Shown here: piece by piece, positions 9,445 to 34,567 of the stretch
Layout of the letters: each line of letters starts with the position of its first letter
Numbering within the stretch: the first letter of the stretch is position 1
Assembly: GCA_964458185.1 (NCBI GenBank)
Contig: CAYWFG010000008.1
Coordinates: forward strand, 2,843-66,842
DNA: 64,000 nucleotides
DNA from: an uncultured Zetaproteobacteria bacterium
Lineage (GTDB): Bacteria > Pseudomonadota > Zetaproteobacteria > Mariprofundales > Mariprofundaceae
Direction of reading: 5' to 3'
Notes under the pieces: generated by a model
What the model was told of the DNA's origin: nothing
What the model saw: only the letters and a program-made list of their open reading frames with translations
The model's database searches: none
Translations under genes and position numbers: made by a program

Positions 9445-10698
9445 TTAACCACGACACCATCGTTCGGGGTTGGTTACTTTTCCGTGGTCACGTATTTCAA
9501 AATACAGGCGAACCCGTTCAATCCACCCTGTAGAGCCAGCATCAGTGATGACATCGCCAGCATGAACGCGATTACCAATTTTTTTATACAAGGCATCATT
9601 ATGGGCATAAATACTCATCACACCATCGCTGTGCTCTACAATCATCATCAAACCAAAACCACCAAACCAATCAGCATAACGCACAACACCATTGGCAATA
9701 GCCCTTACTTTTCGACCATTGCGGCTGCTTGATGCTGGTGCAATCAATACCCCTTTAAGTTTCGGACGATTTTGATCCAAACGCGCACCATAATGTGCTA
9801 CTATTTTTCCTCGCAAAGGCCAAGGCACACGACCTCGATGCTTGCGAATATGCCCCTTGATGGTGTATGCCGTTGGGGTAACGGTTTTTCCACCTTGCTT
9901 CGATTTACGCTGAGCTGCACGCTTGCGAGCCAAAGCTTGTTTGGCAATACGGTCTAATAAATGCCTCAAACCTCGTTGTTGTAATGCCAGTGTTGCATCC
10001 CGCGATTTTTTAAGACGCACATCATGACGCACTTTACCTGCCAATGCGCGTTTGGCACGTAACTTTTGTTTAGCTGCGGCTTCAACAACACTTTTTTCTT
10101 TACGCAGTTCGACCAGCAGCAGTTGTTCATCTTTTAAGGCGGCTTCAGAGATTAATAATGTTTTGATGGATTGTTGTAATGTCATCCGATCACGCGCTTG
10201 TCGCTCTAGCACTGCCGTCAACATATATTGGCGGTGGGGTATTTCAGTAACAGGAATCCCTGCTAAAACATCAAGCCAGCTAGGCTCTCGACCTGCTTGC
10301 CGCCACGCTGTTGCAGCCTCTTCCTGCATATTAGACTTAATGTGTGCAATGTTTGATTTTAAATCACCAATCTTCTTTCGCAAGGCTTTGATATTACGAT
10401 TAACAGTGCGCTGTTTATCAAGCACCACCGTTAATTCACGTTTTGCCTTCACCCACGAACGATCCAATGCACGCAAAGCCTTGTTCAATGAACCGAGTTT
10501 ATTTTCTAGCACCCGCCGTGTTTGAGCCAGTTCTTGGCGTTCTTTGTTCAGTTGCTGCAATTCGTGGTTGACATCACGGCTGGCAGCATGACTGATGGTT
10601 GGTGGCATTATTAAGCAGACTAAAAACAAATAAAAGAGTATATTTTTATACTTTACTGTTAAACAATACTGGTGTATGATAAATAAGTATATACTCAT
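9445..10698 (-). CDS. envC: murein hydrolase activator EnvC (coiled coil plus degenerate LytM/M23 domain)
   Basis: Long coiled-coil N-half. C-terminal M23 fold with a degenerate metal site (LYFEIR instead of HxH). ATG 10698 is the only Met that provides a signal-like N-terminus. Confidence 0.8.
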   Translation of the reverse strand: MSIYLFIIHQYCLTVKYKNILFYLFLVCLIMPPTISHAASRDVNHELQQLNKERQELAQTRRVLENKLGSLNKALRALDRSWVKAKRELTVVLDKQRTVNRNIKALRKKIGDLKSNIAHIKSNMQEEAATAWRQAGREPSWLDVLAGIPVTEIPHRQYMLTAVLERQARDRMTLQQSIKTLLISEAALKDEQLLLVELRKEKSVVEAAAKQKLRAKRALAGKVRHDVRLKKSRDATLALQQRGLRHLLDRIAKQALARKRAAQRKSKQGGKTVTPTAYTIKGHIRKHRGRVPWPLRGKIVAHYGARLDQNRPKLKGVLIAPASSSRNGRKVRAIANGVVRYADWFGGFGLMMIVEHSDGVMSIYAHNDALYKKIGNRVHAGDVITDAGSTGWIERVRLYFEIRDHGKVTNPERWCRG

Positions 10699-19413: not shown

Positions 19414-20844
19414 CTACCGAAACAAGCGCATTAACAAACCCACCACACGGCGCATGCGCTCTGAAAATATTCGCGCTGTATAAAAACTGCCTGCAATGCG
19501 CTTGTTGACCTCACTCAATGTTGGGTAAGGTGCAATTGCTGCTGCCATCGCACTAATTTTTAATTGCTCATTGATCGCCAACACCCATGGTTGAATCAAT
19601 TCCCCTGCATGCAAGCTGGCAATCGTTGCCCCTAAAATACGACCGTTCGGACGGACGATAACCTTAACCAAGCCTTCGGTTCTGCGCTCTGCCTGCGCCC
19701 GATCATTATCAGCAAACGACCAATGCAACACACGATGCTTGATGCCTTGTTTTTGCGCATCGGATGCTGCAAGACCAACATGCGCCAATTCTGGGTCGGT
19801 ATACGTCACCCAAGGAACCGCTTGGTAACGCACCTTCACTGGCCATTTAAACAATATATTGCGCAGCACAATCCCTGCTTGATACGCTGCCATGTGGGTG
19901 AACTGGTAAGGTCCCACAACATCACCCATGGCAAAAACACGAGGGTTGCTGGTGCGCAACGACGCATTCACCGTGATACCACGGTCAGTATAATCAACCC
20001 CTGCTTGTGCTAACGCTAAACCATGAACATTGGCGCGCCGCCCTGTGGCAATCAACACATGCGAGCCAGTCGTGCATTGGGTAATTCCATCCATCTCACA
20101 AAACACTTGAATATCGCCTGAAGGCAAGGCTTCAAAACGAATGTTGCGCCCCCCTTCATAAAATTGTATGCCCTCTTCTTGCAAGCGTTGAATCACCACA
20201 GCCGCAGCATCAGGATCACCTTTAACCAATAACCGAACTACTTCCATCACCGTAACATCAGCCCCTAAGCGGCGAGAGGCTTGTGCCAATTCCATGCCAA
20301 TAGGACCACCACCAACCACAATTAAATGAGAAATAGATTTTTTTTGATTAAAAATATTTTCATTGGTGAAAAAAGGAATCGTTTCCAAGCCTTTAATCGG
20401 GGGAATAAAAGGAGAAGAGCCTGTCGCTACAACAATATATTTAGCGTGAACCGTCACCTCACCCGCTTGAATGCATTGCTTGCCAACAAAGCTGGCTGCC
20501 GCCTGAATCACGCGCACACCCAACGCTTCAAAACGTGCCACCGAATCATTCGGTGCAATGGCAGCAATCACCGATTGTACATGATCATGCACTGCCGCAT
20601 AATCAACAGTGATGGAATCTACACGAACACCAAAGGCTGGTGCATCTCGAATATGTGCCGTTTTTTCAGCGGCTGCGAGCAAAGCCTTGGAAGGAACACA
20701 GCCTGTATTGAGGCAATCGCCCCCCATCGCGCCTTTTTCAATCAGCACTACACTAGCACCCATTTGCACAGCACCTGCAGCTAGGGTTAACCCACTAGAA
20801 CCTGCTCCAATAATACAAACATCAACATGAATTACTTCCCCCAT
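19414..20844 (-). CDS. class I pyridine nucleotide-disulfide oxidoreductase (Lpd/MerA-core-like flavoprotein); not a bona fide MerA
   Basis: GAGSSG FAD motif and redox disulfide GGDCLNTGCVPSK. C-terminal APYPTLSE has Tyr where Lpd/GR have the catalytic His. No NmerA domain and no C-terminal Cys pair. Confidence 0.75.
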   Translation of the reverse strand: MGEVIHVDVCIIGAGSSGLTLAAGAVQMGASVVLIEKGAMGGDCLNTGCVPSKALLAAAEKTAHIRDAPAFGVRVDSITVDYAAVHDHVQSVIAAIAPNDSVARFEALGVRVIQAAASFVGKQCIQAGEVTVHAKYIVVATGSSPFIPPIKGLETIPFFTNENIFNQKKSISHLIVVGGGPIGMELAQASRRLGADVTVMEVVRLLVKGDPDAAAVVIQRLQEEGIQFYEGGRNIRFEALPSGDIQVFCEMDGITQCTTGSHVLIATGRRANVHGLALAQAGVDYTDRGITVNASLRTSNPRVFAMGDVVGPYQFTHMAAYQAGIVLRNILFKWPVKVRYQAVPWVTYTDPELAHVGLAASDAQKQGIKHRVLHWSFADNDRAQAERRTEGLVKVIVRPNGRILGATIASLHAGELIQPWVLAINEQLKISAMAAAIAPYPTLSEVNKRIAGSFYTARIFSERMRRVVGLLMRLFR

Positions 20845-20982: not shown

Positions 20983-21336
20983 TCACCGAATCGGGCATGG
21001 CGGACAACAACAATCAAACGCTTCTTTAGTGCGTATACGGTACAATGTATCGACAGGGAAAACAGCCACCAAACCATCGCCTGATTGCCCCGTGTAAGCC
21101 GTCTCCATAATACATTGGGCAATGCTATCGGTTTCAGATGCATCGCAAAAAATTTCAATTTGCGCATGGTTGCACATCATGTCTTCTCGATAATAATCGT
21201 GGTATTCACCATAACCACGCACCTGTGTGACACTGATGCCAGAGACATTGATGTCACGCAATGCCGCTTCAACTTTTTTTAACACCAAACTGCTGATCAC
21301 AGCGGTAATACGTTTATAATTCACATGGTCATTCAT
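20983..21336 (-). CDS. PII (GlnB)-superfamily protein of the heavy-metal-efflux-linked type, with a Cys-rich C-terminal tail
   Basis: KRITAVISSLVLKKVEAALRDINVSGISVTQVRGYGE...GDGLVAVFPVDTLYRIRT has PII topology. The T-loop is short and non-canonical. Tail is FDCCCPPCPIR. GGGAG Shine-Dalgarno before ATG 21336. Confidence 0.7.
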   Translation of the reverse strand: MNDHVNYKRITAVISSLVLKKVEAALRDINVSGISVTQVRGYGEYHDYYREDMMCNHAQIEIFCDASETDSIAQCIMETAYTGQSGDGLVAVFPVDTLYRIRTKEAFDCCCPPCPIR

Positions 21337-21403
21337 GATTAAAACTCCCTCTTTCATCAAATGTGCAAGCCATGAGTCACCATAGCTTGCACAAATTCAC
21401 CCT

Positions 21404-21907
21404 TTATTTATTATCAGGGTATTTCACACCGATAAAATGTTTGCCACCATCTTCGGTTTTAAACAACACCATGATCTTGTGTTGCCCTGGGTGGTCAAGC
21501 TCATAGCCTGCCATATACCAATCGCCCATTTTCATCATCATCTTGGATTCTGATTTGTCGTTGGGGTGGGTAACTTTAGAGTTCACCGCTTGTAAGCCAA
21601 CAACAGCACCATCTTTTTCAACTTTAACCATCAAGTGGAACGAACCACCGTGTGCCATACCTTCAGGGGCTTTCATGACATGAAAGCTTACTGTGTAACC
21701 ATCGACATCAGCCTTTTCCAGATACGTCCCTTTTTTCATGCCACCATCATGGCTCATCTCGCCCTTCATGTGACCGTCATGCATGTTGCATGGGTTGTGG
21801 GCATGCCCTTCGCCATGGGCATGATCGCCTGTTGCCCACGCGCTTGGCATGGCAAGGCTGGCGGCAAACAATGCCGCTGCTGTTAATAACATCCGTGTTT
21901 TTTTCAT
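21404..21907 (-). CDS. periplasmic His/Met-rich putative Cu/Ag-binding protein
   Basis: Signal peptide ending SAWA. Mature N-terminus TGDHAHGEGHAHNPCNMHDGHMKGEMSHDGGM. Beta-rich body carries an MMMKM patch. AAGGAG Shine-Dalgarno. Confidence 0.55.
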   Translation of the reverse strand: MKKTRMLLTAAALFAASLAMPSAWATGDHAHGEGHAHNPCNMHDGHMKGEMSHDGGMKKGTYLEKADVDGYTVSFHVMKAPEGMAHGGSFHLMVKVEKDGAVVGLQAVNSKVTHPNDKSESKMMMKMGDWYMAGYELDHPGQHKIMVLFKTEDGGKHFIGVKYPDNK

Positions 21908-22086: not shown

Positions 22087-22695
22087 TTATTTCACCGCAC
22101 CAAACGGCAAAACCCGTGCGAAAGGTCGATGCCCAGCGCGCATGTGCATCAATGCCATAAACACATGCCCAATCACATACAGCCATAATAATTTAGATAA
22201 CAATGAATGGCTGCTAAGCAATAGCTCCATGCCTTGTGAGATATGCTCATGGCTATGCCCACTTGGTTCACTGGTGAACCAAATAATGGTTCCTGTAATC
22301 GCCATACCTGCCATCACCAATAACCCCAGCATTTCAATAATCATGGATAAGGCATTATTGGGTTGAATAAATACAGACTTGCCGAGCAATGCAGCAGGCA
22401 GCTTGCCAAGCACTACTTTTGCATCGTGCCAATGTTGTAGCGACAAAAGCACTGCCATTTGTCGTTTGTTTTGCTCACCACGCATAACAATTGCCCACAG
22501 CACATTCGCCAATACAATGACCGCAACAATTAAGCCATCCAGTTGATGCAAACTCATCAAAAGATTGCCAAAGGGTGTGCCATGATCGTCAGGGTGTGAC
22601 ATCAATAAACTGCTTGATAGTTGAAACAGCACGCCAACAATCAAGCCTGCATGCAGCCAACGGGTGGTGACATGATAACCTTGCATAGTCATCAA
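22087..22695 (-). CDS. cytochrome b561-family membrane protein
   Basis: Four TM helices with conserved His positions (TRWLHAGL..., HQLDG..., HVFMALMH). The ATG overlaps the DUF411 stop (ATGA). Confidence 0.6.
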   Translation of the reverse strand: MMTMQGYHVTTRWLHAGLIVGVLFQLSSSLLMSHPDDHGTPFGNLLMSLHQLDGLIVAVIVLANVLWAIVMRGEQNKRQMAVLLSLQHWHDAKVVLGKLPAALLGKSVFIQPNNALSMIIEMLGLLVMAGMAITGTIIWFTSEPSGHSHEHISQGMELLLSSHSLLSKLLWLYVIGHVFMALMHMRAGHRPFARVLPFGAVK

Positions 22696-23180
22696 TAGTG
22701 CGCGAAGACTTCTGTTTTTCCGCTGCCGTTAAACGACAATACATCATAGCCTTCGGTGGGTAAGCCTTCTTTTTGCATGCCTGGTGATTTCATCGGCATG
22801 CCAGGGGCAGTAAGCCCCACAATATCAGGACGTTCTTTTAATAAACGTGCCACGTCTTTGGCTGGGACATGACCTTCTATAATATAACCGCCAATCAATG
22901 CCGTATGGCATGATTCCAATGATTTAGGTACGCCGTATTGTTTTTTGATGGCATTCATATTGTCACGTTTGTGTTCGGTGACGGTAAAGCCTGCTTGACG
23001 CATATGGCTTGCCCAATCACCGCAACAGCCACAGGTCGGGGATTTGTACATATCAATGGTTTGACCATTTGATTGTGCCACCGTTGTTGTTTTTTCTTCG
23101 GCTATTGCGGTATTCACCGCATAGGCTGTAAATAACATTGCCATCATAGCAAATAAGCCAGTTTTTTGATAAAGTTTCAT
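22692..23180 (-). CDS. copG: DUF411 / CopG-family periplasmic copper-binding protein
   Basis: SPTCGCCGDWASHM Cys cluster and GYIIEGHVPA...APGMPMKSPGM. Signal peptide from MKLYQKTG (ATG 23180, AAGGAA Shine-Dalgarno). Confidence 0.8.
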   Translation of the reverse strand: MKLYQKTGLFAMMAMLFTAYAVNTAIAEEKTTTVAQSNGQTIDMYKSPTCGCCGDWASHMRQAGFTVTEHKRDNMNAIKKQYGVPKSLESCHTALIGGYIIEGHVPAKDVARLLKERPDIVGLTAPGMPMKSPGMQKEGLPTEGYDVLSFNGSGKTEVFAHY

Positions 23181-23206
23181 GGTGTTCCTTTTGGTTTTTA
23201 TCTGTG

Positions 23207-23240
23207 CTTTTGCTCCCACACAAGCGCATGGAAGCAAAAG
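23207..23240 (-). other. intercistronic stem-loop (11-bp stem) between the mini-lipoprotein gene and copG
   Basis: On the mRNA strand, CTTTTGCTTCC pairs with GGGAGCAAAAG around a 12-nt loop. No U-tract follows. Confidence 0.5.
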
Positions 23241-23258
23241 TAAGGGATTCAATGGTCG

Positions 23259-23405
23259 TTAGCGAATAATATCAAATGAGCGGTCATGTGCATTTTTACC
23301 TGTATGCTTCATCGTTGTGCCATCAGCATTATCGTGTGTATTGGCACAAGCACCCAAACTGAGGGTAAACATCAGCATCATCGCCATCATTATATATTTT
23401 TTCAT
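23259..23405 (-). CDS. unannotated 48-aa lipoprotein (absent from the ORF track)
   Basis: MKKYIMMAMMLMFTLSLGACANTHDNADGTTMKHTGKNAHDRSFDIIR. Lipobox is LGAC. AAGGAG lies 8 nt upstream, inside the end of cusA2. The ATG overlaps the cusA2 stop (ATGA). Confidence 0.65.
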   Translation of the reverse strand: MKKYIMMAMMLMFTLSLGACANTHDNADGTTMKHTGKNAHDRSFDIIR

Positions 23406-26400
23406 ACGTCACTCTCCTTTACCATCGATTTTTCTTGCCATTGCAGCAATAAACCATACACAGCAGGCAATACCACAAGGCAAAGAATGGTAGTTGTTAC
23501 CATACCACCAATCATGGGCGCTGCAATGCGTTGCATCACACTGGAACCTGTGCCATCGCCCCACATAATCGGTAACAAACCTGCAATCACTGCCGTGGCA
23601 GTCATGGCAATGGGGCGCACCCGTTGCGCTGTGCCTTGGAGAACAGCGGCATACATTTCTTTTGGCTCTAATGGGCGTTGCAATACTTTACGCTTTTCAT
23701 CCACGGTTTGTGCAATGAACGTTAATACCAACACGCCAATTTCTGCGGCGACACCTGCCAGCGCGATAAAACCTACACCGACGGCAACACTTAAATTATA
23801 ATCCAGCAGATAAATCAACCAAATACCGCCGACCATGGCAAACGGCACAGAAACCATCACCACCAAGGGTTCGGTTAAGCGTTGAAAGTTAAAGTACAAT
23901 AGCAAGAAAATAAGCAACAACACCAATGGTGCAACAATTTGCATCCTTGCCTTGGCACGCTGCATGTATTCGTATTGCCCTGACCATATCACATTATAAC
24001 CTGCTGGAATTTTCACTTTTTCGGCTACAATTTGTTGTGCCTTAGTCACATAACCGCCAATATCGGAAGTTTTGATGTCCACATAAATCCATGTATCCAG
24101 CAACGAATCTTCACTTTTAATCACGGGTGGGCCACGGGTTAATGATAAATCTGCAACCAATGACAGAGGAATTTGCTCACCGTGGGGCGTGGGAATCAAT
24201 ACCCGTTTGAGTGCCTCAGGTGAATCACGCACTTCACGCGCATAACGCAGGTTCACAGGGTAGCGTTCCAACCCTTCCACGGTTTTGGTGATGTTCATGC
24301 CACCAATGGCTGATTGAATGACATCTTGCACGTCACCCACGGTTAAACCATAGCGCGAAGCTTCTTTGCGGTTGATTTTAATATCGTAATAATACCCACC
24401 CACCGCACGATCCCCCATCGCAGTTTGGGTTTCAGGTAGCATTTTTAACACGCCTTCAATCTCTTTGCCCAGACGTTGCAACTCTTCAAGGTTATCACCC
24501 ACGATCTTGATGCCTACAGGGGTTTTGATGCCTGTAGAAAGCATGTCGATCCGTGTTTTTATCGGGTATGTCCACGCATTGGCAATACCGGGGAAGTTGA
24601 TGGCTTGATCCATTTCCTTCATCAATTCCTTGCTGGTTTTTTCAGGATTTGGCCATGCTTCATGCGGTTTTAGATGAATGGTGGTTTCCATCATCGATAA
24701 CGATGCAGGGTCAGTCGCGGACTCTGCTCGCCCTACTTTACCAAATACCGTTTCCACTTCAGGAAACCGTTTGAGTATTTGATCGGTACGCTGCAAAATC
24801 TCTTTTGCCTTGGTAATAGAAATACCAGGGAATGCCGTCGGCATATACAAAATATCGCCTTCATCCAGTGGCGGCATGAACTCGCTGCCCAGCTTGCTTA
24901 ACGGGTACGCACCACTGACCAGCAGCACCACGGCAATCATCATGGTCATCCATTTAAAACGCATCGCCACCGTTAAAATGGGGGTGTGCAACCATTGCAA
25001 AAAACGATTGATCGGGTTTTTATGCTCAGGCATGATTTTTCCGCGAATAAAATAGCCCATCAACAAAGGAACCAAGGTAATCGCCAAAATCGCCGCTGCT
25101 GCCATCGAATAGGTTGCGGTAAACGCCAATGGTTTAAACAAACGCCCTTCTTGTGCTTCCAGCGCAAAAATCGCCAAATAAGACACCGTGATAATCAACA
25201 AAGAGAAAAACAACGCAGGGGCAACTTCTTTGGAGGCCGTGCCAATCGCTGCCCAATGTTCTTTGTTGTTGAGTGCACCGCCTTTTTGTTGCGTTCGCTG
25301 CTCCAGATGCTTGTGGGCATTTTCGATTAACACAATCGCGCCATCAACCATTGCCCCGAGCGTAATTGCGATACCACCCAACGACATAATGTTCGCGGCA
25401 AGCCCTTGGGTTTGCATCAAAATAAAGGCAATCAACACCCCCAAAGGCAAGGTGATAATCGCCACCAAGGCAGAGCGGGCATGCATGAGAAACAACAAGC
25501 AAACCAGCCCAATAACAATAAATTCTTCAATCAGTTTTTCTTTTAAATTGTCCACAGCGCGTTCAATTAAGCCGCTGCGGTCATAAACAGGAATAATCTC
25601 TACGCCTTCGGGAAGCCCTTTGCGTAATTCATCGAGTTTTTCTTTCACCGCATTGATGGTGGCTAAAGCATTTTCACCAAAGCGCATAATCACCACGCCG
25701 CCAGCGACTTCACCTTCGCCATTTAGCTCAACCAATCCACGGCGTAATTCAGGGCCTAAATGCACATGGGCTATATCACGAATACGAATCGGCGTACCCG
25801 TAGTGTTTGAACCAACAGGAATATCATTGATGTCTTCAATGCTTTGTATATAGCCTAATCCACGCACCATGTATTCGGTTTCAGACATTTCGAGTAAGCG
25901 TCCACCAACATCGTTGTTGGAGCGTTTGATCGCATATTTGACGGCAGATAATGGAATATTGTATGCCAGCAAAGCATCAGGATCGACTTCCACTTGGTAC
26001 TGTTTAACAAAACCACCAATGGAGGCGACTTCAGATACGCCATTAACGGTTTGCAAGCGGTAGCGTAGATACCAGTCTTGAATGGAGCGCAGTTGGGATA
26101 AATCATGTTTGCCTGTTTTATCAATCAAAGCATATTCATAGACCCAACCGACACCCGTGGCATCAGGGCCTAATGTAGGGGTTACGCCTTCGGGTAAAAA
26201 CTTGGAAGCATAATTAAGGAATTCTAACACACGGCTACGCGCCCAATACATATCGGTGCCATCTTCAAAAATGATGTAAACGAACGAAAAGCCAAAAAAT
26301 GAATAACCACGCACTGTTTTTGTTTTGGGTACGGCAAGCATGGCAGTGGTTAAAGGGTAGGTGACTTGGTCTTCGATCACTTGTGGGGCTTGACCGGGGA

Positions 26401-26557
26401 ATTCAGTGAAAACGATAACTTGGACATCCGATAAATCAGGGATGGCATCTAGGGGAATGGTTTTGACTGCCCATAAACCACCTAGGAATAATAGCATGGT
26501 TGCCATTAATACTAAAAATGGTTTTTTTAATGAGATGTCTACGATATTTTGGATCAT
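23402..26557 (-). CDS. cusA: CusA-type (monovalent Cu/Ag) heavy-metal-efflux RND permease, copy 2
   Basis: 1051 aa. TM4 motif LGAMVDGAIVLIEN (A-x5-D-x6-E, Cu/Ag type). Met triad contexts conserved (ILYMPT, SLSMMETT, RIDMLSTG). Confidence 0.9.
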   Translation of the reverse strand: MIQNIVDISLKKPFLVLMATMLLFLGGLWAVKTIPLDAIPDLSDVQVIVFTEFPGQAPQVIEDQVTYPLTTAMLAVPKTKTVRGYSFFGFSFVYIIFEDGTDMYWARSRVLEFLNYASKFLPEGVTPTLGPDATGVGWVYEYALIDKTGKHDLSQLRSIQDWYLRYRLQTVNGVSEVASIGGFVKQYQVEVDPDALLAYNIPLSAVKYAIKRSNNDVGGRLLEMSETEYMVRGLGYIQSIEDINDIPVGSNTTGTPIRIRDIAHVHLGPELRRGLVELNGEGEVAGGVVIMRFGENALATINAVKEKLDELRKGLPEGVEIIPVYDRSGLIERAVDNLKEKLIEEFIVIGLVCLLFLMHARSALVAIITLPLGVLIAFILMQTQGLAANIMSLGGIAITLGAMVDGAIVLIENAHKHLEQRTQQKGGALNNKEHWAAIGTASKEVAPALFFSLLIITVSYLAIFALEAQEGRLFKPLAFTATYSMAAAAILAITLVPLLMGYFIRGKIMPEHKNPINRFLQWLHTPILTVAMRFKWMTMMIAVVLLVSGAYPLSKLGSEFMPPLDEGDILYMPTAFPGISITKAKEILQRTDQILKRFPEVETVFGKVGRAESATDPASLSMMETTIHLKPHEAWPNPEKTSKELMKEMDQAINFPGIANAWTYPIKTRIDMLSTGIKTPVGIKIVGDNLEELQRLGKEIEGVLKMLPETQTAMGDRAVGGYYYDIKINRKEASRYGLTVGDVQDVIQSAIGGMNITKTVEGLERYPVNLRYAREVRDSPEALKRVLIPTPHGEQIPLSLVADLSLTRGPPVIKSEDSLLDTWIYVDIKTSDIGGYVTKAQQIVAEKVKIPAGYNVIWSGQYEYMQRAKARMQIVAPLVLLLIFLLLYFNFQRLTEPLVVMVSVPFAMVGGIWLIYLLDYNLSVAVGVGFIALAGVAAEIGVLVLTFIAQTVDEKRKVLQRPLEPKEMYAAVLQGTAQRVRPIAMTATAVIAGLLPIMWGDGTGSSVMQRIAAPMIGGMVTTTILCLVVLPAVYGLLLQWQEKSMVKESDV

Positions 26558-26611: not shown

Positions 26612-29600
26612 TTATTTGTGGGCTGCGCGTTCTTTTGCCTGTAATACCATGCCATAAATGACGGGTAGGACTAGCAGGCTTAACAATGTTGCCGTGACCA
26701 TGCCACCAATCATCGGCGCTGCGATGCGTTGCATGACATCGGAGCCTGTGCCTCCGCCCCACATGATCGGCAGTAAACCTGCAATGACGGCGGTGGCTGT
26801 CATGGCAATAGGGCGTACTCGTTGGGTTGTACCACTGGCTACGGCTTCGATGATGTCTTGGGATGATAATGCACCGCGTGTTTCGGCACGGCGTTTGGCG
26901 ACCGATTGATCGATAAAGGTCATCACCAACACGCCGATTTCTGCCGATACCCCTGCTAGCGCAATAAAACCAACAGCGACTGCAACACTCATATTATAAC
27001 CCAAATACCAAACCAGCCAAAAGCCACCAATCAAGGCAAAGGGAATAGAGAGCATGACCACCACAGGTGAGGTGAAATTTCTAAAGTTAAAATACAGCAA
27101 CAAAAAGATCGTCAACAGAGTAATCGGAATCACCACGCGAAGCCGTTCTGCGGCACGTTCCATGTATTCAAACTGACCAGACCACACCAGCGAGTAACCC
27201 GCAGGAATTTTCACTGTTTCTGCCACCTTCTTTTTAGCTTCAGCGACATAACCACCAATATCGGAGGTTTTAATATCGACATAAATCCATGCGTTCGGCG
27301 TGGCATTTTCTGTTTTAACCGATGGGGGGCCACGGCGAAGCTTTAACGTTGTCACCAAAGATAAAGGGATTTGTGTGCCTGTCGGCGTAGGGATCAACAC
27401 CCGTTTAAGTGATTCCATATTATCGCGCAATTCACGCGGATAACGAATATTAATCGGGTAACGCTCTAAGCCTTCCACCGTTTCACTCACATTCATGCCA
27501 CCAATGGCAGATTGAATCACATCTTGCACATCTCCCACCGTTAAACCATAACGAGCAGCTTCTTCACGGTTGATGTCAAAATCAAGGTAATACCCCCCTG
27601 CGGCACGGTCAGCAAAGGCAGACAATGTATCGGGAAGTTGTTTAATAGCGCGTTCAATTTCGCCAGCAACATCTTCTAATACCTGCAAGTCAGGCCCTGA
27701 TAGTTTAATGCCAATCGGGGTTTTAATCCCCGTAGAGAGCATATCAATCCGTGTTTTAATTGGGTATGTCCACGCATTGGCTAGCCCTGGGAATTTGATC
27801 GCAGCATCCATTTCTGCCATCAATTCTTTGGTTGTTTTGCTAGGATCTGGCCATTCCGATTTGGGTTTTAAACGAATGGTAGTTTCTAGCATCGAGAGTG
27901 GTGCAGGGTCAGTGGCTGTTTCTGCACGCCCTACCTTACCAAAGGTATGATGCACTTCAGGGAAGGTTGCCAGAATTTTATCCGTTTGCTGCAATAACTG
28001 CTTTGCCTTGGTAATAGAAATACCAGGGTAAGTCGTTGGCATATAGAGTATATCACCTTCATCCAAGGGCGGCATGAACTCTGAGCCTGTATTCATCAAC
28101 GGGTAGGCTGTTGCACCCAGCAAGATAAGGGCAAAACTTAGCGTGATAAAACGCCAACGCAGCGCAAAACCAAGCAATGGCGCATGCACCGACTTTAAAC
28201 CTTTATTGAGCCAATTATGCTCTTCACTGGGGATTTTTCCGCGAATCATCAGTCCCATCAGCACAGGAACCAAGGTAACGGCAAGCAATGCTGCCGCAGC
28301 CATCGCATAGGTTTTGGTGAACGCCAGCGGTGCAAACAATCGCCCTTCTTGCGCTTGCAAAGTAAACACAGGCAAAAATGATACCGTAATAATCAGCAGC
28401 GAGAAAAATAGCGCAGGACCGACCTCTTTGGAGGCAGCAGTAATCGCCTGCCATCGTGCCGTGGTATTGTTGCTTTGTTCAGGGGTAAGATTTTCTAGGT
28501 GCTTATGGGCATTTTCGATCATCACAATTGCCCCATCAATCATCGCACCAATGGCAATGGCAATACCGCCAAGACTCATAATATTGGCAGATAAGCCCTG
28601 CCATTGCATAATCATAAAAGCGATCAAAATTCCAATTGGCAAACTGATAATTGCCACCAAGGCACTGCGCGCATGCATTAAAAAGATCAAGCAGATGATT
28701 GCCACTACAATCGACTCTTCAATCAATTTACCCTTGAGATTTTCCACGGCACGTTCAATCAAATCACCACGGTCATACACGGGTATAATTTCTACACCTT
28801 CGGGCAAGCCTTCTTTTAGATCATCCAGTTTTTCGCGTACACGTTCAATGGTGGCTAAGGCGTTTTCACCATAACGCATAATAATAATGCCACCGACCAC
28901 TTCGCCTTCACCATTTAGCTCAACCAGTCCGCGCCGCAATTCTGGCCCAATATGAATATTCGCCAGTTGTTTAAGAAAAATTGGCGTACCATTATCATCC
29001 ACACCAACAGGAATGACCTCTAAATCATGCAAGCTTTTGATATACCCCAACCCACGCACCATGTATTCGGTTTCGCTCATTTCCACCAAACGCCCACCAA
29101 CATCATTATTCGAGCGTTGAATGGCATGTTTAATTTTTGCAAGTGGAATATTGTAGGCAAGCATGGCATCAGGGTTTAACTCAATTTGGTATTGTTTAAC
29201 ATAGCCACCAATCGAAGCCACTTCAGATACGCCTTGCACGGTTTGCAAAGGGTAACGTAAATACCAGTCTTGAATCGAACGGAGTTGCGATAAGTCGTGT
29301 TTTCCTGTTTTATCTACCAAGGCGTATTCGTAAATCCAGCCAACACCTGTGGCATCAGGGCCTAACTTTGGCGAGACACTGGCTGGCAAACGGTCTGCTG
29401 CATAATTCAAGTATTCCAGCACCCGCGTCCGCGCCCAATACATATCGGTGCCATCTTTGAAAATAACATAGACCATCGAAAAACCAAAAAACGAATAGCC
29501 CCGTACCACCTTGGTATTCGGCACAGAAAGCATCGCCGTGGTCAACGGGTAGGTTACTTGATCTTCGACAACTTGCGGTGCTTGCCCTTCAAACTGGGTA

Positions 29601-29749
29601 AATACAATCACCTGCACATCAGAAAGATCAGGGATGGCATCCAGTGGCGTGGCTTTCATCGCCTGAAACCCTGCAAACGAAATCAACAATGCAGCAATCA
29701 ATACCAAAAATCGGTTCCGAATGGATACATCAATAAGCGAACGAATCAT
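26612..29749 (-). CDS. cusA: CusA-type (monovalent Cu/Ag) heavy-metal-efflux RND permease, copy 1
   Basis: 1045 aa. TM4 motif IGAMIDGAIVMIEN. Met triad contexts ILYMPT, PLSMLETT and RIDMLSTG. Confidence 0.9.
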   Translation of the reverse strand: MIRSLIDVSIRNRFLVLIAALLISFAGFQAMKATPLDAIPDLSDVQVIVFTQFEGQAPQVVEDQVTYPLTTAMLSVPNTKVVRGYSFFGFSMVYVIFKDGTDMYWARTRVLEYLNYAADRLPASVSPKLGPDATGVGWIYEYALVDKTGKHDLSQLRSIQDWYLRYPLQTVQGVSEVASIGGYVKQYQIELNPDAMLAYNIPLAKIKHAIQRSNNDVGGRLVEMSETEYMVRGLGYIKSLHDLEVIPVGVDDNGTPIFLKQLANIHIGPELRRGLVELNGEGEVVGGIIIMRYGENALATIERVREKLDDLKEGLPEGVEIIPVYDRGDLIERAVENLKGKLIEESIVVAIICLIFLMHARSALVAIISLPIGILIAFMIMQWQGLSANIMSLGGIAIAIGAMIDGAIVMIENAHKHLENLTPEQSNNTTARWQAITAASKEVGPALFFSLLIITVSFLPVFTLQAQEGRLFAPLAFTKTYAMAAAALLAVTLVPVLMGLMIRGKIPSEEHNWLNKGLKSVHAPLLGFALRWRFITLSFALILLGATAYPLMNTGSEFMPPLDEGDILYMPTTYPGISITKAKQLLQQTDKILATFPEVHHTFGKVGRAETATDPAPLSMLETTIRLKPKSEWPDPSKTTKELMAEMDAAIKFPGLANAWTYPIKTRIDMLSTGIKTPIGIKLSGPDLQVLEDVAGEIERAIKQLPDTLSAFADRAAGGYYLDFDINREEAARYGLTVGDVQDVIQSAIGGMNVSETVEGLERYPINIRYPRELRDNMESLKRVLIPTPTGTQIPLSLVTTLKLRRGPPSVKTENATPNAWIYVDIKTSDIGGYVAEAKKKVAETVKIPAGYSLVWSGQFEYMERAAERLRVVIPITLLTIFLLLYFNFRNFTSPVVVMLSIPFALIGGFWLVWYLGYNMSVAVAVGFIALAGVSAEIGVLVMTFIDQSVAKRRAETRGALSSQDIIEAVASGTTQRVRPIAMTATAVIAGLLPIMWGGGTGSDVMQRIAAPMIGGMVTATLLSLLVLPVIYGMVLQAKERAAHK

Positions 29750-29828: not shown

Positions 29829-31307
29829 TTATTTAGGCATTTCCATATCGCCCATATTCATGTCATCCATCTTGTCCATATCCATATCGCCCATATCCAT
29901 ACCTTTAGGTGCTACAACCTTAGGTTCTTGTTTCTTCATCATTTTGGCAGTGGCTTCTTTAAGTTTTGACTCAGAGTCAATCAAGAATTGGCTAGAGGTC
30001 ACGACAATCTCACCCTCTTTCAAACCATTAACAATTTGCACCATGCCATCAGCTTCCACGCCCAAAATAACCTTGCGTGGATCAAACTTACCTGCACCAC
30101 GCTGCACAAATACTTGCTCTTGTTCACCCGTGCGCACAATCGCTTCTGATGGAATAACAATGGCATCAACCTGCTTACCCGCTCTCACATTCACATTGGC
30201 AAACATTTCAGGCTTTAGCACCAAATCACTGTTATCAAATTCCAAACGAATTTTAACGGTGCGGGTTTTTGCTTCTAAGTAGGGGTAAATGTAACTTACT
30301 TTACCGATAAAAGTTCTCCCCGGTACGCCAGCGATTTTCATTTCAGCATCATCGCCTTCACGCACCCAAGGTAGATCATCTTCGTACAGATCTACAATCA
30401 CCCAAATATGGGTAAGATCAGCAATCATGTACAATTCAGTGGAAGGTGTGATCCGTTCCCCTTCACGTACGCCAATGTTCATGATTGTGCCATTAAAAGG
30501 TGAGTGGATATGCAGTGCTTTAATGACTTTGCGTGTGCGTTTTAATTTTCTAATTTGATGTTTGGGTACATCCAATAAATCAAGTCGTGAATACGCCGAT
30601 TTCAATAAATTTTTAGCTCCTTCACGCACATCAGGGAAAGGACTGTTCTTTAAAATATCAACGTTGTTTAATGCCAAAATATATTCTTCTTGTGTAGCGA
30701 CCAACTGCGGCGAATAAATCGCCATCAACATCGTATCTTTAGCAACGGTGTCACCCGTCTTGTTGATAAATAATTTTTCTACCCAGCCATCATACTTAGG
30801 GTGCAAACGTGCTACACGCTCTTCATCAAAAGTGACGCGCCCAATGGTGCGAATATCACGCGATAGTGTGATGCGTTTTGCCGTAGTGGTACGAACACCG
30901 ATATTTTGTGCCAGCGTACCATCAATTTTTACCGTGCCAGCCAACGATTTTTCATCACCACCACCATCGGCATACACGGGAATATAATCCATGCCCATTT
31001 CATCTTGCGCAGGAACAGGTGAAGTAATATTGGGATTCATCGGGTTGCGGTAAAACAATACTTTTTTTTCTTTGGGGGAATTCTCTTCGGCATAGACAGG
31101 CACATAATCCATGCCCATAGAATCTTTGGCGGGTACTTTGGATGTAGCCGTAGGATCCATGGCATTACGGTAAAAAAGAATTTTTCGTTCGTTACTAGCC
31201 GCTGGGGTTGAAGGGGATTGATTGGCGTAATACTGATTGCCAAAGTAGCCAGCCCCTGCACCGATAAGCAAGGTGACGATGGCAGTGCCGATAATGGATT
31301 TGTTCAT
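29829..31307 (-). CDS. cusB: CusB-type RND periplasmic adaptor with two N-terminal heavy-metal-binding repeats and a Met/Asp-rich tail
   Basis: Repeats ILFYRNAMDPTATSKVPAKDSMGMDYVPVYAEE and VLFYRNPMNPNITSPVPAQDEMGMDYIPVYADG. MFP barrel/hairpin body. Tail is GMDMGDMDMDKMDDMNMGDMEMPK. Confidence 0.85.
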   Translation of the reverse strand: MNKSIIGTAIVTLLIGAGAGYFGNQYYANQSPSTPAASNERKILFYRNAMDPTATSKVPAKDSMGMDYVPVYAEENSPKEKKVLFYRNPMNPNITSPVPAQDEMGMDYIPVYADGGGDEKSLAGTVKIDGTLAQNIGVRTTTAKRITLSRDIRTIGRVTFDEERVARLHPKYDGWVEKLFINKTGDTVAKDTMLMAIYSPQLVATQEEYILALNNVDILKNSPFPDVREGAKNLLKSAYSRLDLLDVPKHQIRKLKRTRKVIKALHIHSPFNGTIMNIGVREGERITPSTELYMIADLTHIWVIVDLYEDDLPWVREGDDAEMKIAGVPGRTFIGKVSYIYPYLEAKTRTVKIRLEFDNSDLVLKPEMFANVNVRAGKQVDAIVIPSEAIVRTGEQEQVFVQRGAGKFDPRKVILGVEADGMVQIVNGLKEGEIVVTSSQFLIDSESKLKEATAKMMKKQEPKVVAPKGMDMGDMDMDKMDDMNMGDMEMPK

Positions 31308-32602
31308 GGTTGATCCTTAATGGTTTGAATGGGTGTGCCTACGGCAGCTTCAAGGCGTGCCAAGGCTTGATTGGCTGTGCTGATCGCTTTCCAATACTGG
31401 GTTTCGTAGTTGTAACTGGTGATTTGACTGCGCACAAGGTTGAGGAAATCCACCTTGTTCACTTGGTAGCCTGCCAACATCGAAGCAACCGTTTGTGTGG
31501 CTTGGGGGATAATCCCCGTTTTAAACAACAGTGCTTGACGAGTCGCTGTTTGATAATCACTGACCGATTGGCTGATGTCTGTTTCCATGGTTAAGCGGCG
31601 ATCTTCTAGTGCAAAAGTCGCTCGTGCGGTGTCTGCCTCGCGTTGTGCTAATGCGCGGTCTTGTTTGGTATCGGTGAAAATAGGTAAATTCATGCTGAAC
31701 ATAATGCCCGTTAAATCGCTGCGACCTGCCCGCATACCATAATTTCCGCCAAGGGAAAAATCAGGGTAATAATCTTTTTTTGCTAATTCAACACGCGCTT
31801 TTGCTGCATCAATATGCTTGCGCTGCGCATCAAGCCATGGACGCGAAGCCAATGCGGTAGTGCGTAACAGTGATTCATCAGGAAGTGTATTTAATTGTTC
31901 AGAAATAGTTGCAGGCAAGGTGATTTGCGCATCTGCGCGGCGTTGCATCAAGGTGTTGAGTGCCGCCTGTTGATCGCGGCGAGTTCCTTTAAGAGAAATC
32001 TCACTATCTAACAACTTAGATAATTCAAGTTGTGCCAACAATACATCCGATTGTAAGCCTTGCCCTGTTTTGTATTTGCTGTCTGCAATACGAACAAATT
32101 GACGCAATAAACTTTGATTGCGTTGAACGATACGCAATGCTTGATCGACATAAACCAAGTTCCACCAATACATGTGGATATTCCGCTGCAACACCAAGCG
32201 AATTTCAGCGACATCCAACAATGCCGCCTGTGCTACAAAATCAGCACTTTTAGCGCGCAACGCCAACTTACCAGGGTACGGTAAGGCTTGAGTCAAACCT
32301 ACTTGAGTCTGGGTCATTGCTTCACGGCTTAAAGAAGGATTATTCAATGGAACATTCAGTATATTAAAATTAAACCGTGGATCGGGCAAGGTGGATACTT
32401 GCGCGGGGACTTCTGCCAATGCTTTGGCGCGTTCGCTTAAGCCTGTTAAAGCTGGATGCGTGGCAATGCTTTGCACGGCATCTTTTAATGTTAATGCTTT
32501 CGATGCATCTGCACTGTGTGCCGTCACCGTCACACCCCAAGCAAGCAACATACTCGCCAGCACTGCCCGCATGGGGGTCAGTGTATAAAGATAAGGCATC
32601 AT
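31304..32602 (-). CDS. cusC: TolC-family outer membrane factor (CusC-like)
   Basis: 432 aa with two OEP repeats. AGGAGG Shine-Dalgarno. Overlaps the cusB start by 4 nt. Confidence 0.8.
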   Translation of the reverse strand: MMPYLYTLTPMRAVLASMLLAWGVTVTAHSADASKALTLKDAVQSIATHPALTGLSERAKALAEVPAQVSTLPDPRFNFNILNVPLNNPSLSREAMTQTQVGLTQALPYPGKLALRAKSADFVAQAALLDVAEIRLVLQRNIHMYWWNLVYVDQALRIVQRNQSLLRQFVRIADSKYKTGQGLQSDVLLAQLELSKLLDSEISLKGTRRDQQAALNTLMQRRADAQITLPATISEQLNTLPDESLLRTTALASRPWLDAQRKHIDAAKARVELAKKDYYPDFSLGGNYGMRAGRSDLTGIMFSMNLPIFTDTKQDRALAQREADTARATFALEDRRLTMETDISQSVSDYQTATRQALLFKTGIIPQATQTVASMLAGYQVNKVDFLNLVRSQITSYNYETQYWKAISTANQALARLEAAVGTPIQTIKDQP

Positions 32603-32745: not shown

Positions 32746-33183
32746 TTAAATAAGTATGCGTTGGGTGGTGGTAAAAAGAAGAGAACTGCTACGCGGCGGC
32801 CCTGTAGGGGTGCGCGATATAAGCATGGAAAGCGTGAATACATGATAGTCTTCACGATCAAGCACAGAAAACATGCTAATATGATCCAGAGACAATAAAG
32901 CAAACACAGCAGAAGAAGCCTGCGTTGGTTCTTCACAATGGAAACAAGCGTGTGCCTGTGGTTGCTGTTGATGCAGGCCTATATCGGCATTGCAATGTTT
33001 TTCTACTTCGGTCAACAGCATGATAGAACCATCATCTGATGGCGTTGCAGGCATATCCGCAGCCATCAAACAAGCAGAAGATAGCAATAACTGTGCTGTA
33101 AAAAGCAAAGCCACGCCAGCCATAAGCCGCTGAAAACCACGATGGTCTGCAAAGTAAGAAAACATGGCGGCAATACTAGGCAT
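32746..33183 (-). CDS. hypothetical membrane-anchored/secreted Cys/His protein
   Basis: Hydrophobic N-segment LMAGVALLFTAQLLLSSACLMA followed by HCNADIGLHQQQPQAHACFHCEEP. Lies 3 nt (TTG start at 33195) or 15 nt (ATG start at 33183) downstream of the FtsX-like gene. No family recognised. Confidence 0.4.
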   Translation of the reverse strand: MPSIAAMFSYFADHRGFQRLMAGVALLFTAQLLLSSACLMAADMPATPSDDGSIMLLTEVEKHCNADIGLHQQQPQAHACFHCEEPTQASSAVFALLSLDHISMFSVLDREDYHVFTLSMLISRTPTGPPRSSSLLFTTTQRILI

Positions 33184-33198
33184 AGTGGGAAGCAAATG

Positions 33199-34401
33199 TC
33201 AAATAACATCAACAGGCTCTAGCCTAGCAGCACGCAGCGCAGGAACCACCGCCGCCAACAGCGTAGCGATAAAAACCAAGCCTACAGTATGCAATAAATG
33301 ATCAGTGTTGATTTCTGTGTAAATCATTGTATCGACATAAAAACGTTGAATGGTGTCCATCTGCCCAGACAAATCAATACCGACATGATGAAACCAACGC
33401 ACGCAGCTTAGCCCCAGTAATGTTCCGAGTGCCACCCCCGTGACACCAAGAATGATGGACTCAACCATGACCATGCCTGCCAAGGTATAACGAGGGCAAC
33501 CCAATGCCAACATGACACCAAACTCATGCACCCGCTCTAGCATACTCATCAACACAGTGTTCATCACCCCTGCAGCAACAATCAATAATACGACACCAAG
33601 AAATATATAATAAAAGACATTCTCTAACTCAACCCACTGTTGCATCATGGGGTACATATCGTACCAACGCATCACTTCGTATTGCTGTGGATTTAATGTG
33701 CCATGCAATTGTTGATAGACACCCTCAAGTTGATCGGCAGGTAACTGCAATAGAATACGCGAAATACGTTGACCCATCCCCAACCATTGTTGCATAAAAG
33801 CTAAGGGGACAATCGCTAATCCACGGTCAATGCCCATTTCACCACTGGAGATGATCCCCACCAAGGTGAACTTTTCGGCGGCTAAAGAACCAAAGCGATC
33901 TTCCGATAACAGTACCAGATCATCGCCGACTGTTATGCCAAGATTACGTGCTGTTGCCGCCCCCACCACACATGCTGTGGTATCATTGTCGTTTAAAAAA
34001 CGCCCACGGTCCACCTTTTGCGCCAAGGTTAAAAGCGTGAGGGAAGGCTCTACCCCCAACAACATCAAGCCTTCAGAAACATCTTCCCCCGCAGCCAATG
34101 CAAAGCCCTGTAATTGACGCGCATAATCATTAACCCCTGCTTGCTTAATCGCAGCATCAACGGTTGTAGCCTGCTGAATATAACGCGATAAACGCGGTGC
34201 GCGGAAATAGCCCTGTTGATGAATTTGTATGCTACCAACAATAGCGCGTTGCATATTGCGGGTCATATTGTTGTGCAGCCCATCGTTAAACCCCCACAAA
34301 AATAACAAAGAGGCAAGACCAATGGTAATCGCAGCCATGGTGATGACACTGCGGCGAGGGTTGCGAAAAATATTACGAAAAGCCATGGCAAACATCATCA
34401 C
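33199..34401 (-). CDS. FtsX-family ABC transporter permease (MacB/LolCE-like), with no adjacent ATPase
   Basis: 400 aa. TM1, a large periplasmic domain, then three C-terminal TM helices. N-terminus AFRNIFRNPRRSVITMAAI is typical of the family. Confidence 0.75.
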   Translation of the reverse strand: MMMFAMAFRNIFRNPRRSVITMAAITIGLASLLFLWGFNDGLHNNMTRNMQRAIVGSIQIHQQGYFRAPRLSRYIQQATTVDAAIKQAGVNDYARQLQGFALAAGEDVSEGLMLLGVEPSLTLLTLAQKVDRGRFLNDNDTTACVVGAATARNLGITVGDDLVLLSEDRFGSLAAEKFTLVGIISSGEMGIDRGLAIVPLAFMQQWLGMGQRISRILLQLPADQLEGVYQQLHGTLNPQQYEVMRWYDMYPMMQQWVELENVFYYIFLGVVLLIVAAGVMNTVLMSMLERVHEFGVMLALGCPRYTLAGMVMVESIILGVTGVALGTLLGLSCVRWFHHVGIDLSGQMDTIQRFYVDTMIYTEINTDHLLHTVGLVFIATLLAAVVPALRAARLEPVDVI

Positions 34402-34490: not shown

Positions 34491-34567
34491 CGGGGCGTAG
34501 CGCAGCCTGGTAGCGCACCAGACTGGGGGTCTGGTGGTCGGAGGTTCAAATCCTCTCGTCCCGACCA
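34491..34567 (+). tRNA. tRNA-Pro (anticodon GGG)
   Basis: A 77-nt cloverleaf folded by hand: acceptor CGGGGCG/CGTCCCG, D arm GCGC, anticodon stem CCAGA/TCTGG with loop CTGGGGG, T arm GGAGG-TTCAAAT-CCTCT, encoded CCA, then a T-run. Confidence 0.9.

Follow-up and report, generated by a model that had tools for sequence, protein, structure and literature searches.

Described PII systems and the locus in the window

Among the PII signal proteins, a "new group" termed PII-NG goes back to Sant'Anna et al. (2009), and its genes are described as linked to heavy-metal efflux. The member from Geobacter sulfurreducens, GSU2134, is described as standing at the head of a czcABC operon induced by Co(II). 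The gene considered here lies on the minus strand of a 64,000-nucleotide stretch of contig CAYWFG010000008.1 (assembly GCA_964458185.1) from an uncultured zetaproteobacterium of the Mariprofundaceae; this whole stretch is referred to as the window. The gene encodes a PII protein with a cysteine-rich C-terminal tail and belongs to a cluster of Cu(I)/Ag(I) efflux genes. Tentatively, we regard its product as the cytoplasmic PII signal protein of that cluster, and its tail as a putative sensor, peculiar to this lineage, that would register metal or redox state through its thiols.

On its sequence and gene linkage, the window protein is placed in the metal-transport-linked group PII-NG. It resembles GSU2134 and other members in matching PF00543 without GlnB/GlnK signatures, in its linkage to heavy-metal efflux, and in the motifs GYGEY, His57, GDG and RIRT. 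It differs from them in belonging to a Cys-rich subclade (C55, C64, C75 and H46), in three departures from residues that are near-invariant in the family (W53M, R59Q and H81Y), and in its DCCCPPC tail. The partner pumps also differ, that of GSU2134 being of the Czc type and that of the window of the Cus (Cu/Ag) type.

Control of transporters by PII proteins, on the logic of GlnK and AmtB, has been proposed generally. The window shares with that pair a PII fold carrying a T-loop and the co-location of the PII gene with a gene for a homotrimeric transporter, here CusA. The T-loop of the window protein, however, is 7 residues shorter and has neither Tyr51 nor the Arg47-type tip, the pocket is remodelled, and docking with CusA is hypothetical; relatives of the window protein, moreover, also pair with monomeric/dimeric CopA ATPases and with MerR genes. 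In SbtB, a cyanobacterial PII-like protein, the R-loop CGPxGC acts as a C-terminal C-x4-C disulfide switch that is reduced by TrxA and controls both the T-loop and nucleotide turnover. Here too the gene stands beside a transporter gene and the protein has a C-terminal Cys pair, and C109/C114 of the window protein, like the C-x4-C subclade of PII-NG, have the SbtB spacing. In contrast to SbtB, there is no sbtA in the window, the motif is CCCPPC (KCxHDVC in relatives) rather than CGPxGC and has two extra Cys, and the context is copper, not inorganic carbon; disulfide formation and nucleotide hydrolysis are known for SbtB, whereas here the comparison is one of sequence. CutA1, a small trimeric ferredoxin-like, PII-like protein historically tied to copper tolerance, has been reported to bind Cu(II) via His2Cys at a site equivalent to the PII ATP cleft, and its role in metal tolerance is disputed. 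It has no sequence relationship to the window protein and lacks a T-loop.

The window protein falls outside canonical GlnB/GlnK and outside the SbtB type. By analogy with GlnK-AmtB or SbtB-SbtA, it may act as a PII protein that controls a neighbouring transporter. In the literature searched, no description was found of the poly-Cys tail, the Cys-rich core clade, the C-x4-C class with CopA/MerR, or the coupling of tails to residue 100 that are set out below.

Fold, family and genomic context

The open reading frame (ORF) at 20983-21336 is a genuine gene. Its minus-strand translation, of 117 amino acids, starts MNDHVNYKRITAVISS and ends LYRIRTKEAFDCCCPPCPIR before the stop codon. The ORF listing also gives a longer form that begins with TTG at 21360; this start is unlikely because the Shine-Dalgarno sequence GAGGGAG is spaced 8 nt from the ATG at 21336. 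The protein shows neither a signal peptide nor a hydrophobic stretch in its sequence, and a cytoplasmic location is therefore expected.

The PII fold that the first-pass annotation had read from the sequence pattern is borne out. PF00543 matches with 57.7 bits (cutoff 25), residues 8-105 aligning with profile positions 2-102 of 102; it was the only profile returned at E<=0.01, and the CutA1 profile PF03091 gave no match. The AlphaFold2 monomer model, based on 128 homologues, has a mean predicted local distance difference test score (pLDDT) of 82.5 and the order beta-alpha-beta-beta-alpha-beta, with strands at residues 7-15, 35-39, 57-65 and 88-95, helices at 16-28 and 66-80, and a loop between the second and third strands. 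Low confidence is confined to the T-loop (residues 40-56) and the distal tail. All of the top 50 Foldseek matches in the PDB are GlnK/GlnB/PII structures (TMq 0.71-0.77), and a sequence search of solved structures found no relative closer than canonical PIIs. The protein is presumably homotrimeric.

Its sequence nevertheless marks it as a PII-family member that is no canonical GlnB/GlnK. Compared with Mycobacterium tuberculosis PII (3lf0) in the HMMER alignment, the T-loop is shorter by 7 residues (7 gap positions), and R38, Q39, Y51, K58 and K90 are replaced by E44, Y45, M53, H57 and L89, respectively; R101 and R103 are kept as R100 and R102, as is the GDG B-loop, of which G83, G86, D87 and G88 are invariant in the family alignment. 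Because the ATP/2-oxoglutarate pocket and the Tyr51 site are remodelled, the protein does not appear to report nitrogen status. Scores against the NCBIfam equivalogs lie far below cutoff (GlnB NF008111, 50.9 bits against 202; GlnK NF007946, 46 bits against 181). The T-loop had also been described as lacking a uridylylation context, and this agrees with the absence of Y-[KR]-G-[AS]-[AE]-Y, the PROSITE-type signature of that site, from the window protein and from all 405 family sequences. The corresponding C-terminal signature, [ST]-x3-G-[DY]-G-[KR]-[IV]-[FW], has no match in the window protein and is missing from 404 of the 405. No amtB, glnA or other nitrogen genes lie near the PII gene, whose neighbours are cus, DUF411, cytochrome b561 and housekeeping genes.

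The size of the family depends on the search. A single-sequence search returned 17 relatives and an exhaustive search of representatives 1314 at E<=1e-10, while profile searches retrieved 1804 clusters at E<=1e-10, a figure that drops to 1617 at the stricter E<=1e-15. When the window protein alone was run against metagenomes, no relatives were found. The inspected members of the profile searches have GYGEY and a short T-loop in common, and may form a clade apart from GlnB/GlnK. Conservation is complete or nearly so for GYGEY (at the base of the T-loop), D52, H57, E61, F63, G83, GDG, P94-V95 and (Y)RIRT. A set of distant PII-NG-like proteins of 173-207 amino acids (P0026, P0038, P0039, P0041, P0052, P0055, P0065, P0070, P0071, P0095, P0097 and P0105) is extended at the C-terminus by a segment in which two hydrophobic helices and a conserved H-x-x-H are found. 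A Pfam scan of these long variants found no additional domain, only predicted membrane anchors, and from their sequences they look like membrane-anchored PII proteins.

The window protein itself falls in a core clade rich in Cys; its 63 clusters are mostly Zetaproteobacteria-like, several of them annotated as Mariprofundus or Mariprofundaceae. C64 is present in all 63 and defines the clade; H46 occurs in 49, C75 in 45 and C55 in 40. The end of the T-loop reads D-M-M-C-x-H in place of D-W-M-V-x-H. The window protein has extra soft-ligand residues at the C-terminal base of its T-loop (Met53, Met54, Cys55 and His57), and seven Cys overall (C55, C64 and C75 in addition to four in the tail). Judged by sequence, soft ligands (Met, Cys and His) are concentrated at the T-loop base and in the tail of the window lineage.

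The PII gene comes second to last in a co-directional minus-strand run from 34401 to 19414, a metal cluster of about 15 kb, and its position at the end of that cluster is as first described. The pumps of the cluster are of the Cu(I)/Ag(I) type: the first CusA paralogue scores 1274 bits to Escherichia coli CusA against 542 to ZneA and keeps the triad M573/M623/M672. No two-component, MerR-type or other metal-responsive regulator was found among the flanking ORFs scanned, in agreement with the earlier remark that no other regulator is visible. From the gene order, the PII gene is most likely co-expressed with the Cu(I)/Ag(I) efflux cluster.

Related loci were compared in 80 cases, taken from species-representative genomes that are mostly metagenome-assembled and labelled Zeta-, Gamma- or Deltaproteobacteria. 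The PII gene in these is usually downstream of cusCBA and co-directional with it. A homologue of the His/Met-rich gene that precedes it in the window lies upstream of it in 30 of the 80, often between cusCBA and the PII gene, and DUF411 is nearby in 23. When the comparison is limited to judgeable loci and to cusA homologues that precede the PII gene on its own strand, loci with a Cys-free tail (class A, n=46) have cusA within 1.5 kb in 26 and within 7 kb in 9 more, or 35/46 in total. The PII group linked to heavy-metal RND genes that the first-pass annotation had mentioned is thus recovered here, in accord with the literature. Loci with a C-x4-C tail (class B, n=11) have cusA within 1.5 kb in none (0/11). 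Four class B loci illustrate other surroundings: the class B gene follows a DsbA-like gene and a CopA-type P1B ATPase gene in L052; it follows a CopA-type P1B ATPase gene in L085, where the cluster also holds MerR, DUF411 and cupredoxin genes; in L076 it comes after a MerR-like gene beside a TRASH/YHS-like gene (read by eye); and in L083 it stands directly after a Thioredoxin_3 gene. This pairing of relatives with CopA and MerR indicates that what unites the family is copper homeostasis as a whole, and not RND pumps in particular. A conserved pairing of the PII gene with a flavoprotein disulfide reductase, as seen in the window, was also considered and rejected, as it is absent from all other loci compared.

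The cysteine tail and its possible roles

The tail FDCCCPPCPIR had been credited with five Cys in eight residues; there are four, C109, C110, C111 and C114, within six residues. The closest relative of the window protein, from a metagenomic locus (L081/P0002), shares 86% amino acid identity and the same motif. Between the two genes DCCCPPC shows 3 synonymous Cys-codon changes and 0 non-synonymous ones, against 48 synonymous and 17 non-synonymous codon differences over the whole gene, which argues that the motif is translated and under purifying selection. The two proteins do not end in the same residues, and their stop codons lie one codon apart. The next relative, at 57% identity, has another type of tail with one Cys. 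By its distribution among sequences the motif is young and narrow in spread. The AlphaFold2 model gives residues 101-110 a mean pLDDT of 78 and residues 111-117 one of 46; positions 110-112 and 114-117 fall below 50.

Tails in the wider family fall into several types. Class A, [RK]SEAxxxE[IV], is acidic and Cys-free. Class B, [RK][EQK]KCx[HYF][DE][VA]C, has the C-x4-C spacing, makes up 43 of 128 close clusters, and is modelled with fair confidence (mean pLDDT 79 for residues 101-109). A subclade with Cys100 has Cys at or near the C-terminus, and CC or CCC tails occur sporadically (P0031, P0045, P0059, P0118 and P0152). Among representatives at 50% identity, tail Cys occurs in 16 of 124, with a Cys frequency of 1.8% in the tail and 1.0% in the core; a Cys tail as a general property of PII-NG is ruled out by this count, and Cys tails are accordingly clade-specific add-ons. 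A separate PII-like lineage (L087, 2664-3035, P0045; also P0279) has a conserved CCC tail and has lost the GDG B-loop.

In canonical PII proteins Arg101 binds ATP phosphate, and residue 100 is its equivalent here. The C-x4-C tail is found in 49 of 78 sequences with His100 and in 1 of 258 with another residue at that position, and tail Cys in 18 of 20 sequences with Cys100 and 20 of 208 with Arg100, as raw counts not corrected for phylogeny. The Cys100 group includes several different tail architectures, and the window protein keeps Arg100. This covariation suggests a tail that bends back over the effector cleft close to residue 100. The first-pass annotation had seen in the tail a plausible soft-metal site and had proposed to survey its conservation. 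Such conservation does not extend to the exact motif, as CCCPPC is present in two of the clusters retrieved and tail Cys of any kind in 22 of the 63 clusters of the Cys-rich clade. A thiol tail with a function nevertheless keeps its credibility, given that Cys tails of other forms recur in the family and covary with residue 100.

The sequence of events that would follow for the window protein is this. The tail would fold back towards residue 100 at the effector cleft and serve there as a thiol-based sensor, either by binding cytoplasmic Cu(I)/Ag(I) as a thiolate or through copper-induced oxidation of its thiols. As with the sensor loops at the C-terminus of other PIIs, the conformation of the T-loop would shift in response to the state of the tail, and the shifted T-loop would alter the contact of the PII protein with a component of copper export, for which the trimeric CusA pumps are the prime candidate. 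What the analysis shows is family membership, the remodelled pocket, synteny, selection on the tail and the covariation with residue 100; that the protein trimerises, that it senses metal or redox state, which protein it targets and in which direction it regulates are inferences. A wider form of this proposal, unlikely in our estimation, makes PII-NG the first PIIs to sense metal or a metal-induced thiol state directly. The tail and residue 100 would then act as an exchangeable lid over what was once the ATP/2-oxoglutarate cleft, and occupancy of the lid by Cu(I)/Ag(I), or its oxidation, would move the short T-loops, gating CusA here and CopA elsewhere from the cytoplasm as GlnK does AmtB. Lids of this kind would pair Arg100 with an acidic tail, His100 with C-x4-C, Cys100 with a terminal Cys and, in the window protein, Arg100 with CCCPPC.

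Several observations weigh against a sensor tail that acts on the pump. The exact DCCCPPC motif is confined to two of the retrieved protein clusters, the window protein (P0001) and P0002, and the family majority has the Cys-free class A tail, so the tail cannot be the core mechanism of the family. The low pLDDT of residues 111-117 leaves the distal tail without structural support, and the raw nature of the residue-100 counts tempers the covariation. The CopA/MerR context of the C-x4-C relatives argues against an RND-gating mechanism common to the family, and together the CopA/MerR and CusA linkages do not fit a simple plug in which one trimer docks on the trimer of an RND pump. One of the sporadic Cys tails, that of P0045, is encoded in a non-metal context, between nucleoside/AMP-phosphorylase-like and PRPP synthetase genes. 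A hairpin on the 5' side of the PII gene and a possible promoter on its 3' side make the operon structure uncertain. Finally, no ligand, partner or structure of any PII-NG protein is reported in the literature searched.

The alternative that fares best, doubtful though it is, is a pure redox switch resembling the SbtB R-loop, in which a disulfide of C109-C114 or of neighbouring Cys would form under oxidising or copper stress, be reduced by thioredoxin or by the adjoining reductase, and toggle the PII protein without metal coordination. It draws on the shared C-x4-C spacing, given that TrxA reduces the C105-C110 disulfide of SbtB CGPxGC, on the conservation of a large C-x4-C subclade with a fairly confidently modelled tail, on the position of the L083 gene directly after Thioredoxin_3 and of the L052 gene after DsbA-like and CopA genes, and on the class-I disulfide reductase that follows the PII gene of the window. 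That reductase, however, adjoins the PII gene in no other locus, three Cys in a row with Pro-Pro look more like a metal thiolate than a hairpin disulfide, and the context is copper export throughout; redox and Cu(I) sensing can, besides, coexist.

A sensor tail is also to be set against two further alternatives. The protein could buffer or chaperone Cu(I)/Ag(I) in the cytoplasm: its tail, contributing 12 thiols to each trimer, would bind Cu(I) in the manner of a small metallothionein and hand it to the cytoplasmic Met entry of CusA or to a CopA-type ATPase, and the protein would have no part in signalling. Four Cys in six residues together with Met53, Met54, Cys55 and His57 would suit such a role, as would the Cu(I)-exporting nature of both family partners, CusA and CopA, and the cytoplasmic location expected in the absence of a signal peptide. 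We hold it to be rather improbable: most members lack tail Cys and keep the same synteny, so that thiol chaperoning cannot be the function of the family, while conservation of the PII core, T-loop and GDG B-loop speaks for a module whose interactions are controlled by a ligand, and the hairpin between the PII gene and the upstream genes suggests a lower, regulator-like expression.

The tail may, on the other hand, be a recent neutral C-terminal extension, produced for example by a shifted stop codon, and the protein may work like any other PII-NG. The restriction of the motif to two sequences, the variability of tails, which are the most variable part of the family, the differing last residues and displaced stop codon of the window protein and L081, and the low pLDDT of the distal tail are all compatible with this. 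The chance of it seems small all the same, since the two proteins, though about 14% divergent, are separated within DCCCPPC by 3 synonymous changes and no non-synonymous one, drift is very unlikely to yield four Cys in six residues at a core Cys frequency of 0.4-1%, and Cys tails in other clades covary with residue 100. An ordinary nitrogen-regulatory GlnB/GlnK placed beside the metal cluster by chance, as the database name of the relatives ("P-II family nitrogen regulator") would have it, is effectively excluded by the equivalog scores, the replaced ATP/2-oxoglutarate ligands and Tyr51, the failed signatures, the lack of amtB and glnA nearby, and the cusCBA synteny that is conserved across classes.

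The surrounding cluster and its meaning for the family

Table 1. Features of the PII gene and of the metal cluster in the window.
Feature	Coordinates	Strand	Description and evidence
MacB/FtsX-like permease	33199..34401	minus	first gene of the run; PF12704 + PF02687
149-aa ORF	32746..33195	minus	no significant family match
CusC-like outer membrane factor	31304..32602	minus	PF02321, 142 bits
CusB-like membrane fusion protein	29829..31307	minus	PF16576, 260.8 bits
CusA paralogue 1 (CusA1)	26612..29749	minus	HME-RND, Cu(I)/Ag(I) type; TIGR00914, 1268.6 bits
CusA paralogue 2 (CusA2)	23402..26557	minus	HME-RND; TIGR00914, 1246 bits; Met triad read in translation
DUF411 (CopG-like) protein	22692..23252	minus	CGCCGDW motif; PF04214, 92 bits
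Cytochrome b561-family membrane protein	22087..22695	minus	PF01292, 53.9 bits
Secreted His/Met-rich protein	21404..21907	minus	167 aa; no significant Pfam match (E>=0.014, far below cutoff), no PDB match
Intercistronic RNA hairpin	21362..21393	minus	14 bp; -21.1 kcal/mol, z-score -4.0; between His/Met-rich and PII genes
Shine-Dalgarno sequence	21345..21351	minus	GAGGGAG, 8 nt 5' of ATG at 21336; direct sequence reading
PII-NG gene	20983..21336	minus	117 aa + stop codon; PF00543, AlphaFold2 PII fold, Foldseek GlnK/PII matches
T-loop, shortened	21169..21216	minus	residues 41-56 (GYGEYHDYYREDMMCN); invariant GYGEY base; end Met53-Met54-Cys55-x-His57
B-loop	21073..21090	minus	G83-x-x-G86-D87-G88, invariant columns; Leu89 instead of canonical Lys90
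C-terminal extension	20986..21027	minus	residues 104-117 (KEAFDCCCPPCPIR), past conserved YRIRT; alignments and AlphaFold2
DCCCPPC motif	20995..21015	minus	D108-C114; four Cys, C109/C114 spaced C-x4-C
Class-I flavoprotein disulfide reductase	19414..20844	minus	last gene of the run; CLNTGC active site; Pyr_redox_2 + Pyr_redox_dim

The MacB/FtsX-like permease heads the cluster without an adjoining ABC ATPase gene. CusA1 and CusA2 stand in tandem and are served by one CusB and one CusC, and a similar duplication is seen in L003, L018, L022 and L082. From its sequence and recurrence, the His/Met-rich protein can be described as a periplasmic protein, as yet uncharacterised, that is conserved in these Cus clusters. 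Between its gene and the PII gene lies the hairpin noted above. At the equivalent place in L081 (about 1074-1116) there is a hairpin of different sequence (z -5.4), and in L082 (about 9938-9974), the locus of a 57% relative, a terminator-like GC-rich hairpin is followed by UUUU. The hairpin may be an attenuator or an mRNA-processing element that sets the dosage of the PII protein. On the other side of the PII gene, a terminator scan up to the reductase gene found none, and the promoter-like site lies at 20897-20869, ahead of that gene. The disulfide reductase scores below the MerA, Lpd and RclA cutoffs, lacks the C-terminal Cys pair of the MerA type, and ends in a basic amphipathic stretch.

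The flanks of the cluster are housekeeping in character (argG, pcm, NlpD-like and riboflavin genes, and a ribosomal protein region), and its GC content does not set it apart from them. A tRNA-Pro(GGG) gene (34491-34567, plus strand) abuts its upstream end, which would fit insertion of an island. Just outside the other end is a small Roadblock/LC7-like ORF (18759-19118, plus strand), with a Pfam score of 21 bits that is below the threshold of 23.

PII proteins are among the most widespread of signal transducers, and their metal-linked group has been recognised since 2009 without a ligand, partner or phenotype. The window gives a handle on this group, in the form of a four-Cys tail under selection and a clean Cu(I)/Ag(I) efflux context, and overturns nothing. 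Cus-type pumps are otherwise known as transcriptionally controlled. If the tail of the window protein does sense Cu(I) or thiol oxidation, a layer of post-translational control would be suggested for these pumps, and the reach of PII signalling would go beyond carbon, nitrogen and energy status and take in metal homeostasis.

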